A DNA stretch of 64,000 nucleotides from Planctomycetota bacterium. GTDB lineage: Bacteria > Planctomycetota > Phycisphaerae > Phycisphaerales > Phycisphaeraceae. The notes under the pieces are model-generated. The model did not search any database, had not been told where the DNA came from, and was given only the letters and a program-made list of their open reading frames with translations. The stretch lies in the NCBI GenBank assembly GCA_038749735.1, contig JBCDHS010000008.1, forward strand, positions 5,797 through 69,796. The letters run 5' to 3'. Below, in pieces: positions 3,055-56,510 of the stretch; within the stretch, counting starts at the first letter, position 1, and each line of letters begins with the position of its first letter. The translations under genes and the position numbers were made by a program.

Positions 3055-4977
3055 GTGAGCAAGAAGACCCCGACAGCATCCAAGCCTGGCCGCGCGTCCG
3101 ATCGCCCCGAGCGGCGGGTTAAACCCCGGACCAAGGCCCCCGCCCCGTGCTACGACATGGGCATCGTGGGCAACGGTCGGACCGCGGCACTCATCGACAA
3201 GGATGGCTCGGTCGTCTTTATGTGCTTCCCCGACTTCGACTCCGGAGCGGTGTTCTGCGACCTGCTCTCGAAGGATAAGGGGGGTAAGTTCGGCATCGAG
3301 ATCGTCGGTGGTAAAACGGCCTGGCAGCGCTACGAGGACCATACCAATGTGCTGGCGACGCGGTTTGAGTCGAAGGACGGCGGGTTTGACGTGATCGATT
3401 TCATGCCACGCTACCGGTTGGACGGCGCGGAGGAGCCCTGCCACCCGCCTGACCTGGTGCGGGTGGTGCGTCGGGTCTGGGGCAAGCCGAAGCTCCGGGT
3501 GCGTTACAACCCCCAACTCGAGTTCGCCAAGGGCGAGACGGATACTCAGATCATTGGCCCGGGTCGGATCAAGAGTACGGTCGAGCGGCAGGAGAAGGGC
3601 ACGGGCGAGACCTACGAGTCGGTGTACCTGCACACGGACCTGGATGTCGAGAAGGTGCTCAAAGGTCGGCCGATTGAGTTGGCGGGTGAGAAGTTCCTGC
3701 TGCTGAGCTACAACGACAAGCTGCGGGAGCCGACAAACACGCTGATCCGGCTGATGCTGGCCAAGACCCATGCGTACTGGTTCAACTGGGCGTCTCATAC
3801 AACCCACCCGCCGCTGTACCGTGACGCGGTGGTGCGCTCGGCGCTAACACTCAAGCTGCTTCAGTTCGGGCCGAGCGGCGCCCTGCTCGCGGCCGCGACG
3901 ACGTCATTACCCGAGTCGATCGGCGAGGTGCGGAACTGGGACTACCGGTTCTGCTGGATCCGAGACGCCTCGATGACCGTCTCGGTCCTGCGACGCATCG
4001 GCAACACCGGGATGGCCTACCGATTTGTCGACTGGGTGATGGATACCGTCCCGACCAAGGACGACAACCTGCAGATCATGTACGGCATCCGCGGGGAGAA
4101 GAACCTGACCGAGAAGACCCTGGACCACCTCGACGGTTACATGGGTTCTAAGCCCGTGCGGGTTGGCAACGCCGCGTACAAGCAGAAGCAGCACGACATC
4201 TATGGCGCCGTGCTCGATGTGATCTGGCAGACCCTGCCGCACTTCGCCGACCGCTTCGACCGGATCGAGGAGGTCTGGACGCGGGTCCGCTCGGTGGTGC
4301 GGACGGTGGAGCGGCTCTGGCACCTGCCGGACCGAGGCATCTGGGAGATGCGGGGGATCAAGCGGCACTTTGTGTTTTCGAAGGTGCTGTGCTGGGTGGC
4401 GGTAGACCGTGCGGCGAAGATCGGCCGGGCGTTGGGCCGGGCGGAGTGGGCGGCTGAGCATGAAAGGCTCGCCGAGGAAATCCGGGCGGATGTGCAGCGC
4501 AAGGGCTGGAATGAAAAGGTCGGGGCTTACACCCAGTCCTATGGCAGCGAGGAATTGGACGCGTCCAACCTATTGATGCTGGACTACGGCTTCTGTTCAT
4601 CCCACGACCCGCGTTTTATCTCGACCGTCGAGCAGACCCAGAAGCACCTGGGTAGGGACGGGCTTCTCTACCGCTACAAGGGCAAGGACGACTTCGGCGA
4701 GCCGACCAGCGCGTTTACGATCTGCTCGTTCTGGATGGCCAAGGCCTTGGTGCGTATCGGTCGGCTGCAGGAGGGCCGGGACCTGTTTGAAGAGCTACTT
4801 GCCTGTACGAATCACGTCGGGCTGATGGCCGAGGACCTGGAGTTTAAGACCCGCCGGCAGCTGGGCAACTTCCCGCAAGCCTACTCTCACCTCGCGTTGA
4901 TCGACACGGCCCTTGCGATCAACGCCCAGGCGGGATGGACCGAGCCCACGGACCTGTCCGAGCGGGCGCTGTACTGA
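3055..4977 (+). CDS. Glycoside hydrolase family 15 (glucoamylase/trehalase-like)
   Basis: AAATTSLPE...RNWDYRFCWIRD, GIWEMRG and LGNFPQAYSH motifs. Confidence 0.92.
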   Translation: MSKKTPTASKPGRASDRPERRVKPRTKAPAPCYDMGIVGNGRTAALIDKDGSVVFMCFPDFDSGAVFCDLLSKDKGGKFGIEIVGGKTAWQRYEDHTNVLATRFESKDGGFDVIDFMPRYRLDGAEEPCHPPDLVRVVRRVWGKPKLRVRYNPQLEFAKGETDTQIIGPGRIKSTVERQEKGTGETYESVYLHTDLDVEKVLKGRPIELAGEKFLLLSYNDKLREPTNTLIRLMLAKTHAYWFNWASHTTHPPLYRDAVVRSALTLKLLQFGPSGALLAAATTSLPESIGEVRNWDYRFCWIRDASMTVSVLRRIGNTGMAYRFVDWVMDTVPTKDDNLQIMYGIRGEKNLTEKTLDHLDGYMGSKPVRVGNAAYKQKQHDIYGAVLDVIWQTLPHFADRFDRIEEVWTRVRSVVRTVERLWHLPDRGIWEMRGIKRHFVFSKVLCWVAVDRAAKIGRALGRAEWAAEHERLAEEIRADVQRKGWNEKVGAYTQSYGSEELDASNLLMLDYGFCSSHDPRFISTVEQTQKHLGRDGLLYRYKGKDDFGEPTSAFTICSFWMAKALVRIGRLQEGRDLFEELLACTNHVGLMAEDLEFKTRRQLGNFPQAYSHLALIDTALAINAQAGWTEPTDLSERALY

Positions 4978-16577: not shown

Positions 16578-17483
16578 ATGTCACTAATTGTCACCGGCAG
16601 CGTCGGCATCGACACAATCGAAACCCCCGACGGGAAGAGGGCCAGCGAAGTGCTGGGCGGGTCGTCGATCTATTTTGCAGCCGGCGCTTCTTTCTTTACG
16701 CCCGTCCGCCTGGTCGCCGCGGTCGGCGAGGACTTCCCCGATTCTTTTACCCAGACATTCCAGCAGTTCGATGTCTGTACCGAGGGCCTGGAAAAGCGGG
16801 TGGGGAGCAAGACGTTCCGCTGGCACGGGCGGTACCACGAGAACATGAACGACCGCGACACGCTGGAGGTCCACCTCAACGTGCTGGGCGAGGCCCTGCC
16901 GCCGGTGCCCGAGGCGTACCGCGACTCGAAGTACATCTTCCTGGCCAACACGCACCCGGCCGGACAGCTCGCTCTGCTCGAACAGTTCCCCGACCGCCGG
17001 CTGGTCGTCGCGGACACGATGGACCTGTGGATCGAGACCGAGCGTGACCTGCTCAAGCGGCTGCTGACAAAGGTTGACGGTTTTGTGCTCAACGACTCGG
17101 AAGCAAAGATGCTGACCGAGGAGAGCAACGTGATCCGCGCAGCGGACAAGGTGTTGGCGATGGGGCCGAGCTTTGTCGTCGTCAAGAAGGGCGAGCACGG
17201 CGCGATCCTGCGGCACAAGGACGGTACTGGAGCACTGCCCGCTTTCCCGGCACGTGACGTGATCGATCCGACCGGCGCGGGCGACTCGTTTGCCAGCGGG
17301 ATGATGGGCTACCTCGCGGCACAGGACGACACCTCATTGAGCGCGATCAAGCGGGCGATGGCCTACGGCACCATCGTCGCGAGCTTTACGATCGAGACGT
17401 TCTCCGTTGGCCGGCTCTCGGAGATCCGCCGTGATGAGATCGATGCCCGTCTGGCACAGTTCACCGAGCACTTGACAATCTAA
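16578..17483 (+). CDS. PfkB/ribokinase-family carbohydrate or nucleoside kinase
   Basis: GSVGID, VVKKGEHGA and DPTGAGDSFASG motifs. Confidence 0.9.
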   Translation: MSLIVTGSVGIDTIETPDGKRASEVLGGSSIYFAAGASFFTPVRLVAAVGEDFPDSFTQTFQQFDVCTEGLEKRVGSKTFRWHGRYHENMNDRDTLEVHLNVLGEALPPVPEAYRDSKYIFLANTHPAGQLALLEQFPDRRLVVADTMDLWIETERDLLKRLLTKVDGFVLNDSEAKMLTEESNVIRAADKVLAMGPSFVVVKKGEHGAILRHKDGTGALPAFPARDVIDPTGAGDSFASGMMGYLAAQDDTSLSAIKRAMAYGTIVASFTIETFSVGRLSEIRRDEIDARLAQFTEHLTI

Positions 17484-17766
17484 CCTGTCATCTCAAAGGG
17501 TCCGATTGTTGGATGGCCCGTATCCCTGGATTTGTTTCGAAGCTGTCGTATCGTCAAACTATTTCAGTCTGGCTCGATGTGCCTGCGGAAAGATTATCTC
17601 AAAATTTCCTTGCAGAGCAGGCAAAAAGCGCTTGGTTTTGCAACCGCGATGCGTAAGATGAAGTAATACAACCTGAAGACGGGTCGATGCGGAGTACGAT
17701 CATCAACCGTCATTTTCTTTTCGCTTCCATTCCCTCCTCCGCTTCCGCCCCCTGACAACCTGAAAC

Positions 17767-17965
17767 GCCCTGGCGGTCGTGACCGGCAGGACCTCGCCGA
17801 CGATGGCGTCGCGCGGCGGCTGTGCCGATGAGTTGTAGAGGCAGCGCCGGGTGACCGCCCCACGGGGCGTGACGCACACCAGGCCAGGCGGTGCGTACGC
17901 CAGGAACGTCGTCGGAGAGGAACCGTGTGTGCGTGGCTGCCGGCACCCGCCAGGGCTTTCTCTTT
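17767..17965 (+). ncRNA. Putative structured ncRNA (~190 nt; 6S-like or unknown class)
   Basis: The 5' and 3' ends are complementary (GCCCTGGCGG 17767-76 / CCGCCAGGGC 17947-56). Further nested stems: CCGGCAG/CTGCCGG, CCTC/GAGG, CCGACGAT/GTCGTCGG and GGCGT/ACGCC, plus two inner hairpins. TTTCTCTTT follows. No credible CDS here. Confidence 0.6.
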
Positions 17966-18040
17966 GCGATCCCCCCACCGGGTCGTTCTGCACGGCAGGT
18001 CTGCTCGTGCCGGGCGATCCCTGCGGAAAGGAAGGCTGGT

Positions 18041-19333
18041 ATGTCGGACTCGCCCGCATCACACTTGTCACTGCCCATGTCCGAGCGTCCCACGGTCGAT
18101 ATCTCCGTGGAGACCAGGCCCTCTTGGCGGCAATGGCTGATCGATCGCAACCCATGCTTTCTGTTGAGCGGGGTCTGCATGCTGCTGGGCTGCTTCCTGA
18201 TCAGCCGTGAGATCCATCAGGCCGACCCAGGCAGCGCCGGGTTTGTCTTGATGCTCGTGGGCCTGATCGTCGTGATGAACATCTACGAGGCCGCGGTGAT
18301 CGGGATGGGCCTTTGGCTTTCACGGAGCCAGGCACTCGTGCGTGACAGCCGGCACCTGTTGGGGCTGGCGCTGCTGCTCTTGATTGACGCGGCGTTTGTC
18401 TACCAGGAGACCGCGACGGCCGACCCCTGGCTCGGCGGCACGATCGCGGGGCTCGCCGGTGTTCTCGGGATCATCAAACTCCTGATCATCATGCGCGGCG
18501 TCGGTGTGAGTCTACCACTCACATCGTGCGTTGCGGTATCGCTGGCTTTGATTGGGCTATACGCCTTGCCGGTCCTTATGCGTTTGTTGGCTGGCGATGG
18601 TTTTGTTTCAATGCCGGCGATGATGGGGGTATGGGCCGCAGTCGGCCTGGTCATAGCGGGTTATGCGTTGCCGATCTCATGGGCGACACGGCAGCCGGCG
18701 AGAGACCGGGACCACCAGCAACTCCAATGTTTGATCATGACGGGAGGCATGACCCTCCCGCTGTTGGCGTTGTGCGCCCACGGCTGGGTGGGGATGTGGG
18801 TCTATGGCAACGGCTTCACCCCGGCTTTCCTGTCGCCGATCATCCTTGGCGTGGCGGCGATCATGCTCCGTCAACATGCAAGGCTGGGGGGCACTCGGCC
18901 CACGGCGAGGGCGGTTGCGGTGATGGTTGGTTTGGCGCTGGGCACCGCGATGTCAGCGCCCGCAGAATTGGTTCTTGTGTTTGATGGGCCGTGGCCGAGT
19001 ATCTCGCCGCTGCGTGGATCGCTGCTGGTCTCGGCGGTCTTGCTGGCCTGGGCCTGGGCATTAACCGGCGGCATACTGACGGCGTTCTCCGCGGCGAGTT
19101 TATTGTTCGCCGCGCTGCTCGGGCACACCCACTCGGCCATTTGGCACAACGCCGGGCGTCTGGTGGACTGGCTGGCCGGGCTGCTGCCTGACGATCGGTT
19201 GGGTTGGGGGGTGCTCGCCGTGGCGGTGGCGTTTGTGCTGCTGGCACTGGGGGGCGGGCTGGGTTGGAAGCGTGAGCGGGCCACGCGTGAGCGGGCCGGC
19301 GCGTCGGATCAGCTCATCACCGCCGAAGAATAG
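18041..19333 (+). CDS. Multi-pass membrane protein of unknown function
   Basis: More than ten hydrophobic segments; RNPCFLLSGVCML N-terminal motif; AAGGAAGG SD before ATG 18041. Confidence 0.75.
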   Translation: MSDSPASHLSLPMSERPTVDISVETRPSWRQWLIDRNPCFLLSGVCMLLGCFLISREIHQADPGSAGFVLMLVGLIVVMNIYEAAVIGMGLWLSRSQALVRDSRHLLGLALLLLIDAAFVYQETATADPWLGGTIAGLAGVLGIIKLLIIMRGVGVSLPLTSCVAVSLALIGLYALPVLMRLLAGDGFVSMPAMMGVWAAVGLVIAGYALPISWATRQPARDRDHQQLQCLIMTGGMTLPLLALCAHGWVGMWVYGNGFTPAFLSPIILGVAAIMLRQHARLGGTRPTARAVAVMVGLALGTAMSAPAELVLVFDGPWPSISPLRGSLLVSAVLLAWAWALTGGILTAFSAASLLFAALLGHTHSAIWHNAGRLVDWLAGLLPDDRLGWGVLAVAVAFVLLALGGGLGWKRERATRERAGASDQLITAEE

Positions 19334-56129: not shown

Positions 56130-56188
56130 TTTTGAATTGGAACAATTGGCTTCGTTTCTGGCCGTGCCTTGGCTCCCCCTCCCTCTTA

Positions 56189-56320
56189 GAACGTGTACGA
56201 GAAGGTGGGGCGGGCATCTTGCCCGCCGTTTGAGCACCGCTCGAAACAGGCCTTTTCACGACGCCGTCGTGACGGCAGGCTGGAAGCCTACCCCACCTAA
56301 GGCACTTCTCGTACACGTTC
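56189..56320. mobile_element. MITE (132 bp) with 16-bp perfect TIRs and TTA target duplication
   Basis: GAACGTGTACGAGAAG (56189-56204) / CTTCTCGTACACGTTC (56305-56320); TTA at 56186-88 and 56321-23. Confidence 0.75.
56205..56296. repeat. Inverted REP doublet (REPIN-like) inside the MITE
   Basis: GTGGGGCGGGCATCTTGCCCGCC (56205-56227) and GGCAGGCTGGAAGCCTACCCCAC (56274-56296). Each is a GTGG foot plus a short hairpin. Confidence 0.7.
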
Positions 56321-56510
56321 TTAGGGAGGGGGCGAGGGGAGGGGTAAGGCGTGGGATCAACCGCGGTATACGGTTAGCAAATTGGCAAGCAGCGCAAGCA
56401 TTCTGTTCGCAAGCTTCGACTCGATTCCGGACACCCGACCCTCCCCCCGGCCCCCTCCCTAAGGGGGAGGGATAGCAAGGCGGCAACGGCCACTATTGAC
56501 ACATAGCGCG

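Follow-up and report, generated by a model that had tools for sequence, protein, structure and literature searches.

A conserved structured RNA upstream of a membrane-protein gene in marine Phycisphaerae, a candidate leader RNA

A structured element between the PfkB and MEM genes

The 64-kb stretch of planctomycetal DNA analysed here (the window, in whose positions the element is numbered, on the + strand) carries a structured element of about 190 nt (17767-17956) between a PfkB-family kinase gene and a gene encoding a polytopic membrane protein, called here MEM. Upstream of the element, the genes encoding GltX (glutamyl-tRNA synthetase), an EVE-domain protein and PfkB all lie on the + strand. 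Downstream, MEM follows on the + strand and UGDH, encoding a UDP-glucose dehydrogenase, converges from the - strand. The element is a conserved, transcribed RNA that matches no known family, and we regard it as a new family within a well-known category, the structured bacterial leader or noncoding RNA (ncRNA) motif. We tentatively read it as the core of a leader RNA acting in cis on MEM. Copies sharing the core of the window are referred to as type A, and a sister version of the locus with a different interior as type B. The parts of the element are the following.

17767-17789, + strand: 5' strand of the closing helix P1, GCCCTGGCGGTCGTGACCGGCAG, consisting of P1a GCCCTGGCGG, P1b GTG and P1c CCGGCAG; partner 17937-17956
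17792-17804, + strand: 5' strand of helix P2, CCTCGCCGACGAT (CCTC-G-CCGACGAT); partner 17908-17920
17805-17809, + strand: first GGCGU ("a"), 5' strand of the junction helix; partner either ACGCC at 17897-17901 or the inner CCGCC at 17855-17859
17815-17848, + strand: hairpin P3 (GGCGGCTGTGCC ... GGCAGCGCC), with an apical part of variable length
17856-17869, + strand: small hairpin P4, CGCCC-CACG-GGGCG (b-c pairing), mutually exclusive with the c-d pairing
17872-17896, + strand: hairpin P5 (ACGCA / UGCGU), with a near-invariant 14-nt loop ACCAGGCCAGGCGG at 17878-17891
17897-17901, + strand: second ACGCC ("d"), 3' strand of the junction helix; 96-97% of cells paired with either partner
17908-17920, + strand: 3' strand of P2, GTCGTCGGAGAGG (GTCGTCGG-A-GAGG); partner 17792-17804
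17921-17936, + strand: one-sided 16-nt internal loop (3' bulge) AACCGTGTGTGCGTGG, whose 3' half GTGCGTGG at 17929-17936 is invariant
17937-17956, + strand: 3' strand of P1, CTGCCGGCACCCGCCAGGGC (CTGCCGG-CAC-CCGCCAGGGC), pairing with the 5' strand of P1
17957-17965, + strand: pyrimidine run TTTCTCTTT, conserved in position and reading TTTTT in most other type A copies

An initial annotation of this DNA had proposed the element from the sequence alone. A direct check located all the helix strings that it quoted at the positions that it gave, and the closing helix, the 16-nt 3' bulge, P2, the two inner hairpins, the TTTCTCTTT tail and a MEM start codon 84 nt downstream of the element (ATG at 18041) were all found in place. 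The minimum free energy of the element is -114 kcal/mol compared to -101 ± 4.3 kcal/mol for dinucleotide shuffles (z = -3.0), and 1 of 200 such shuffles folds as well. Its G+C content is 70-73% against 46-50% in the upstream half of its 557-nt intergenic region. The minimum-free-energy fold, the RNAalifold consensus and the models tested by covariation all contain a large loop with 2 nt on one side and 16 nt on the other, below a branched apex.

The structure is conserved and supported by compensatory changes

To find homologues, 79 loci amounting to about 0.5 Mb of sequence were fetched with MEM and PfkB as anchors, and copies of the element were identified with nhmmer and with a covariance model built from ten copies. 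Fifteen distinct type A copies were obtained, the window included, the 14 others coming from Phycisphaerae-type assemblies, and all of them occupy the same site between PfkB and MEM. With the covariance model, these copies score 136-222 bits on the + strand, whereas scores on the - strand never exceed 15 bits, an asymmetry that arises partly by construction because the model was built from the + strand. No copy was detected by this model off the syntenic site in the 0.5 Mb.

These searches bear on the possibility that the element is a miniature inverted-repeat transposable element (MITE) or a different repeat of selfish or structural nature, in which the closing helix would be mimicked by terminal inverted repeats. 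The ends of the element are indeed inverted repeats of about 20 nt. However, the 5' strand of P1 is unique within the window even when 3 mismatches are allowed, the element occurs once there and, among the 79 loci, at the syntenic site only, a target-site duplication was not seen, and the copies differ by compensatory changes instead of being near-identical. The additional genomic copies that the initial annotation had considered are thus found neither in the window nor in the fetched loci, and the repeat explanation, which is effectively refuted, keeps next to no probability.

The genomes bearing type A copies are fairly close relatives, with protein identities of 80-88% for PfkB and UGDH and about 45% for MEM, and the raw conservation of the element is therefore less striking than it first seemed. 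Between loci, nucleotide identity is nevertheless higher in the element (69-87%) than in the MEM coding sequence (60-69%), the spacer between them (51-64%) being nearly unalignable.

To test the structure itself, 56 pairs were modelled by hand and scored on a MAFFT alignment of 13 sequences. Standard pairs form in 92.2% of the base-pair cells compared to 33-49% in a control in which the 3' partners were slid by 1-3 columns, 6-7 pairs changed on both sides, and 0 of 500 shuffles reached the observed paired fraction or covariation score. In P1, 93.6% of the cells are paired and 3 pairs show changes on both sides; its P1b segment occurs as GUG/CAC, CAUG/CAUG or CAUC/GGUG, which includes a G-C to C-G flip. 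P2 is paired in 87.6% of the cells and has 2 pairs changed on both sides (A-U/G-C and C-G/U-A). P3 is paired in 97-100% of the cells; one basal pair varies stepwise across copies (C-G, U-G, U-A) once L078 is added, and its apex carries an extra hairpin in L002, L024, L026, L076 and L078. P4 is paired in 80% of the cells, and the change of both sides observed in L063 (A-U to G-C) fits a rival pairing equally well. Finally, P5 exists in the compensatory variants ACGCA/UGCGU (window), AUGCA/UGCAU (most other copies) and GUGCA/UGCAC; 3 sequences show U-A replaced by C-G, and L004 shows A-U replaced by G-C. The search for covarying homologues advocated in the initial annotation has thus given compensatory changes. 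Since G·U cells outnumber A·C cells in the model pairs (69 to 23), the + strand is the RNA.

Between these helices, the P5 loop ACCAGGCCAGGCGG is identical in 14 of the 15 copies and the bulge block GTGCGTGG (GUGCGUGG) in all 15, and both are unpaired in every model. The bulge block is a candidate recognition or tertiary-contact site, and a putative contact of the loop with the bulge (GGCCA/UGGCU) is proposed. Altogether, a conserved structured RNA in which four helices are kept, with compensatory changes in P1, P2 and P5, is well supported.

The arrangement of the core can be drawn in two ways, as a three-way junction or as two side-by-side hairpins, because GGCGU and ACGCC each occur twice in it (the inner CCGCC of the window, at 17855-17859, reads ACGCC in most other copies). 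The three-way junction is the version of the initial annotation and the two adjacent hairpins are the minimum-free-energy version. Both topologies score alike, with 92.2% of the cells paired and covariation scores of 0.165 versus 0.167, so that the alignment cannot separate them. The annotated helix GGCGT-C-GCGC / GTGC-GT-ACGCC accordingly holds as one of two competing pairings, with the reservation that its inner half (GCGC/GTGC) clashes with P5, which is supported by covariation.

The element matches no known RNA family and is not a coding sequence

At the gathering score, no Rfam 15 family matched in the 64-kb window or in seven related loci. With the threshold relaxed to E <= 10, nothing overlapped the element on its strand in window positions 17400-18200, in the type A locus L025 (1280-1680) or in a type B homologue, the only matches being at chance level and lying outside or antisense to the element. 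In particular, no riboswitch class of Rfam 15 matches it. ARAGORN detected no tRNA or tmRNA gene in the window, and limited literature searches on 6S or structured RNAs of Planctomycetes found no description of the element.

The initial annotation had considered a divergent 6S RNA, which would mimic an open promoter and hold back the RNA polymerase holoenzyme. The element does resemble 6S RNA (SsrS; RF00013) in its size of about 190 nt, in the pairing of its 5' and 3' ends in a long imperfect closing helix, in its large internal loop and in its position upstream of and co-directional with a protein gene, as well as in being probably trimmed from a longer precursor. It is also transcribed above the level of the neighbouring genes (see below), and no 6S match was found in the window or the seven related loci, which are only small parts of their genomes. 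By contrast, 6S RNA is an unbranched rod made of a closing stem, a two-stranded central bubble and a terminal stem. The loop of the element is one-sided, so that there is no two-stranded bubble to template a product RNA, and its apex is branched into two or three hairpins. In 800 nt of the window and in 400 nt from a homologue, no 6S-type model of Rfam matched at E <= 10. The sequence blocks are far more strongly conserved than is usual in 6S RNA. Moreover, the element is found in a single clade and disappears along with its downstream gene, including from a genome whose PfkB is 82% identical, which would be odd for a global regulator, and, judged from contig depth, it seems only a few-fold more abundant than mRNAs. 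The 6S proposal is thus not supported and is very improbable.

Two coding explanations were also discarded. Stop codons interrupt the element in most frames and differ between copies, and alignments contain indels of 1-2 nt; a translated open frame across the element had no match among 5.8 billion proteins. A small leader peptide fares no better, the 22-codon frame of the window being broken by 1-nt indels in other copies. A scan of viral contigs with a 17-mer of the P5 loop gave 5 matches, all negative with the covariance model and thus chance matches.

The element is the middle part of a longer conserved unit

The core of about 190 nt that had been annotated is real, but it belongs to a longer unit reaching from the promoter to the ribosome-binding site, and both this unit and its type B sister version had been overlooked. 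In order, the module comprises a sigma-70-like promoter, a leader hairpin of about 100 nt, the element, a U-rich run, a spacer and MEM, and conservation in the alignments continues about 130 nt upstream of the element. The additional parts are as follows.

17623-17659, + strand: promoter-like block, with an A-tract AAAAAG (17623-17628), a -35-like TTGGTT (17632-17637), a 16-nt spacer and a -10-like TAAGAT (17654-17659)
17668-17676, + strand: ACAACCTGA motif, first of two copies, where the transcript is predicted to start
17681-17752, + strand: leader hairpin L1, in which GCGGAG (17689-17694) pairs with CUCCGC (17737-17742)
17755-17766, + strand: second copy of the ACAACCTGA motif (ACAACCTGAAAC), conserved, directly 5' of P1
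17966-18040, + strand: spacer with local hairpins and the ribosome-binding site GGAAAGGAAGG at 18025-18035
18041-19333, + strand: MEM, encoding an all-helical polytopic membrane protein of 430 aa

The promoter-like block is found in the alignments of all type A and type B loci in the form AAAA.GCTT(T/G)GT, 16-17 nt, TA..(A/G)T. Its conservation and position suggest that it is a promoter; it stayed below the threshold of a consensus promoter scanner. At the predicted start, ACAA(C/T)(C/T)(T/C)G, of the general form ACAACYUGA, is kept in 15 of 15 alignable leaders. The two ACAACCTGA copies (17668-17676 and 17755-17763) lie 87 nt apart, flank the leader hairpin and are both conserved in all related loci. 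Partial self-complementarity of the motif would also allow the two copies to pair with each other, and the second one may mark a processed 5' end.

Leader hairpin L1 is formed by a purine-rich arm and a C/U-rich arm, separated by a pyrimidine-rich loop of about 35-45 nt that holds the conserved AACCGTCATTTTCT (17705-17718; a CCGUCAUUUUC-type block). The same architecture was obtained for all 15 leaders folded in isolation. Read by eye, the arms remain complementary from lineage to lineage, as GCGGAG/CUCCGC, CGAGGA/UCCUCG, AGGGA/UCCCU and GAAGAAGA/UCUUCUUC, and as GCGAGAGA/UCUCUCGU in type B. The folding z-scores of L1 are weak (-0.5 to -2.9), and RNAalifold found no consensus for the type A leader because the pairing register is ambiguous in C/U-rich sequence.

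On the 3' side, most type A copies have UUUU(U) right after the P1a strand CCGCCAGGG(U). The TTTCTCTTT run could act as a leaky terminator tail or could instead form the loop of a small hairpin, GGG(U)-loop-(A)CCC, that is also present in type B; a consensus terminator scanner did not call the U-run after P1. The spacer is poorly conserved save for its AAAGGAG-type ribosome-binding site.

The type B version was found in five relatives, at the following positions.

L003 3536-3915: type B locus
L005 3558-3895: type B locus
L019 3507-3895: type B locus
L068 1117-1510: type B locus of Phycisphaeraceae bacterium D3-23 (complete genome, CP114179)
L077 3997-4385: type B locus

These loci keep the promoter-like block, L1, a closing helix GCCCCGG/CGGGGC and the ribosome-binding site GAAAGGAUGG. 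They differ in their interior, which varies more and is devoid of the invariant P5 loop ACCAGGCCAGGCGG.

The element and MEM are present or absent together

The start of MEM at 18041 is conserved in 11 homologues (MSD/MTD start). The public gene call P0001 (468 aa; 17927-19333) starts MEM at a GTG located inside the RNA element, and this over-extension shows how annotation pipelines mask the 3' part of the RNA. MEM has no Pfam or NCBIfam match, and its AlphaFold model (mean pLDDT 80.5) matched no fold of the PDB (TM <= 0.26), apart from spurious helical-repeat matches. Among the loci examined, the family occurs only in Phycisphaerae-type assemblies, and the homologues share an invariant motif on their N-terminal side, DRNP..L.S...M..GC.

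MEM lies directly downstream in every locus bearing the RNA. In L076, the gene beyond MEM differs and the RNA-MEM pair is intact. Conversely, L079, whose PfkB is 82% identical, keeps GltX-EVE-PfkB and has neither RNA nor MEM, and the same holds for Poriferisphaera corsica. In L079, a gap of 113 nt (3113-3225) separates PfkB from UGDH; in the P. corsica locus (L074, 3907-4241), PfkB is followed by a canonical terminator and then by an HDOD-GGDEF gene. These comparisons support the view that the RNA and MEM are present together or absent together and are physically and evolutionarily tied. Upstream of more distant MEM homologues (about 30% identity, other orders), no element or leader was detectable and no consistent long gap was seen.

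Such a fixed place in the 5' leader of a single gene family, followed by a U-run after P1 and by a gene coding for a polytopic membrane protein, is compatible with a new class of small-molecule riboswitch, in which a metabolite would stabilise P1 and thereby control read-through into, or translation of, a transporter-like MEM. The core is also aptamer-like, with covarying helices around invariant unpaired nucleotides in loop and junction. However, a riboswitch is unlikely because P1, with about 20 bp, is very stable and differs from the short, ligand-dependent P1 of known riboswitches, because no covarying alternative pairing (anti-terminator or anti-sequestor) was found, and because type B relatives, which would regulate the same gene, do without the type A core. 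The distant MEM homologues without the element, the single gene context and the lack of any hint of a ligand, MEM having no recognisable family or fold, weigh in the same direction, and we consider this explanation improbable.

The element is transcribed and exceeds its flanks in random-primed libraries

Since no RNA run was listed for the window's own sequence, expression was deduced from homologous copies. Twenty-five RNA runs, nearly all metatranscriptomes, contain 31-mers of the leader and element of a homologue; they originate from seawater, coral, biofilm, sediment, a hypersaline lake, salt marsh and estuary. Contigs from such runs were compared with L025, L026 and L006 and cover the leader and the element, which provides the transcript looked for in the initial annotation. 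It should be noted that the contigs were assembled without strand information, so that transcript ends remain putative, and that contig depth is a poor measure of expression. Depths along the locus were as follows.

X12: element 11.8, PfkB 2.8, MEM 2.6; random-primed, from an organism nearly identical to L006
X15: element 24.6, PfkB and MEM not assembled; random-primed, from an organism nearly identical to L006
X8: element 81.7, PfkB 18.5, UGDH 18.9; library type unspecified, from a more distant relative
X13 and X9: element about equal to its neighbours; oligo-dT

The element thus exceeds its flanks about 4-fold in X8 and X12 and at least 10-fold in X15. One further run, X34, has a uniform depth of about 10 and is evidently DNA.

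Many contigs have their 3' end within or just past the 3' strand of P1, and the X9 assembly breaks exactly at the U-run and restarts in the spacer and MEM. Other contigs extend 18-149 nt beyond P1, which indicates that read-through exists. At the other end, contigs of X12 and X20, which come from unrelated studies, begin at the same nucleotide, CAACAACYTGAG (CAACAACYUGAG). In X20, an Illumina adapter end (CGATCT) directly precedes the contig start, a weak indication that duplicates of a short insert could mimic. A 151-nt contig of X17 also carries RNA joined to an Illumina adapter right after GCGUGCGUG, inside the invariant bulge (about 1547-1561 in L025; about 17929-17936 in the window). This junction could be a real RNA end or cleavage site, or it could derive from duplicates of one short insert.

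These data raise the question of whether the element is an independent small RNA (sRNA) acting in trans. The promoter would then mainly make a stable RNA of about 200-300 nt, MEM being expressed by read-through, and the conserved single-stranded parts of this RNA, namely the loops of L1 and P5 and the bulge, would either pair with the purine-rich ribosome-binding sites of other mRNAs or bind a protein and hold it back. Several features agree with this proposal: the MEM coding sequence is less well conserved than promoter, leader and element, depth in random-primed metatranscriptomes is at least 4 times higher for the element than for PfkB, UGDH or MEM, contigs tend to end at the 3' strand of P1 or at the U-run, the conserved, unpaired 35-45-nt C/U-rich loop resembles a seed region, and a closing helix of about 20 bp is more like those of stable ncRNAs than like the P1 of a ligand-gated riboswitch. 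By contrast, wherever the RNA occurs MEM is directly downstream of it and loss of one goes with loss of the other, the excess in abundance is modest and absent from oligo-dT libraries, read-through contigs exist, no target or protein partner could be proposed, and type B does not contain the core motifs of type A. Furthermore, stable structured pieces of 5' UTRs commonly outlive their mRNAs, so that accumulation is no proof of an independent gene. A trans-acting sRNA is the main rival explanation, somewhat less probable than a cis-acting leader.

A putative cis-acting leader of MEM

The reading that we tentatively favour, with slightly less than even confidence, is that of a new leader RNA, restricted to one clade and acting in cis, with the element as its structured core; a stable species of about 200 nt would also accumulate from it. 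A cis-acting leader is preferred because of the strict co-occurrence with MEM, the unit running from promoter to ribosome-binding site that types A and B share, and the signs of both a short stable species and read-through. The initial annotation had left the choice between a new ncRNA class and a cis-regulatory leader of the gene at 18041, and this part of its proposal is supported by an element that is conserved, covarying, transcribed, single-copy, linked to MEM and devoid of relatives in Rfam.

In such a leader, the conserved sigma-70-like promoter near 17623-17659 would start a transcript near 17668, whose first 100 nt or so would form L1 and display the conserved C/U-rich loop. The next 190 nt or so (17767-17956) would fold into P1 with its approximately 20 bp, P2 and two or three apical hairpins, with two nearly invariant blocks left unpaired, the ACCAGGCCAGGCGG loop of P5 and the GUGCGUGG bulge; the pyrimidine run, a spacer of about 75 nt and the MEM ribosome-binding site would follow. 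The stable P1 clamp together with the U-rich run could serve as a leaky stop or as a processing point at which transcripts would split between an accumulating, stable RNA of about 200 nt and a MEM mRNA made by read-through. A putative factor, more likely a protein than a small molecule, might recognise the surface formed by the invariant loop and bulge and would set the balance between the two.

Several observations weigh against this reading. As to abundance, the element is no more abundant than its neighbours in the oligo-dT libraries. As to the transcript ends, the deepest X15 contig runs about 20 nt past the U-run, the ends of de Bruijn contigs also reflect strain variation and coverage, and carry-over of DNA is possible. 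The U-run would make an atypical terminator, as the stem preceding it encloses about 165 nt and the run of the window is interrupted. Pairing between the leader and the MEM ribosome-binding site, evaluated with RNAduplex in 15 loci, was no better than with shuffled leaders, and sequestration of this site by the C/U-rich leader was dropped as unsupported. Type B has no U-run directly after P1, and its lack of the type A core implies that the core is not needed for the role of the leader in those relatives. Finally, all loci share a single synteny, and the linkage to MEM could partly reflect common descent.

A stronger proposal, to which we give limited credence and which we hold to be unlikely, is that the type A core represents the first member of a new class of functional RNA, either a protein-binding or RNA-polymerase-modulating RNA of marine Phycisphaeraceae or a riboswitch controlling a new membrane-protein family, with the ACCAGGCCAGGCGG loop and the GUGCGUGG bulge as its putative binding pocket.

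Among known systems, orphan structured motifs such as the raiA-motif RNA and orphan riboswitch candidates were found by comparative genomics in long G+C-rich intergenic regions. The element resembles them in its G+C-rich multi-helix fold, its covarying helices with invariant unpaired nucleotides and its fixed upstream position. It differs in having no relation to any of those in Rfam 15, in its much longer closing helix, in its very narrow distribution (one clade, one synteny) and in the conserved C/U-rich hairpin that precedes it. A second comparison is offered by the E. coli pnp and rnc leaders, which are cleaved by RNase III and in which an extended stem acts as a processing or stability element. 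Here too, a stem of at least 20 bp lies in the 5' leader, contigs break at its 3' foot, where defined ends are possible, and accumulation of the structured fragment seems to be separate from that of the downstream mRNA. On the other hand, cleavage is only putative in the present case, the stem encloses a conserved multi-helix core with invariant loops, and MEM is not an RNA-metabolism gene, so that autoregulation of this kind is not expected.

To our knowledge, RNA-based regulation has been almost unstudied in Planctomycetota. Binding of a ligand or a protein by the RNA, if it proves real, would open a first way into the function of the MEM family and into post-transcriptional control in the phylum. 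The reach of the finding is limited: the element occurs in a single clade of marine Phycisphaerae and a single genomic context, the conserved core is missing from a sister lineage, and many comparable orphan RNA motifs are already on record.

A second long structured intergenic stretch was observed in the window at 56173-56463. It is rich in CCCTCCC/GGGAGGG and has no Rfam match, and it consists of nested inverted repeats, with 32-nt arms at 56173-56204 and 56305-56336 that are 84% complementary and a further 33-nt pair at 56320-56352 and 56431-56463.

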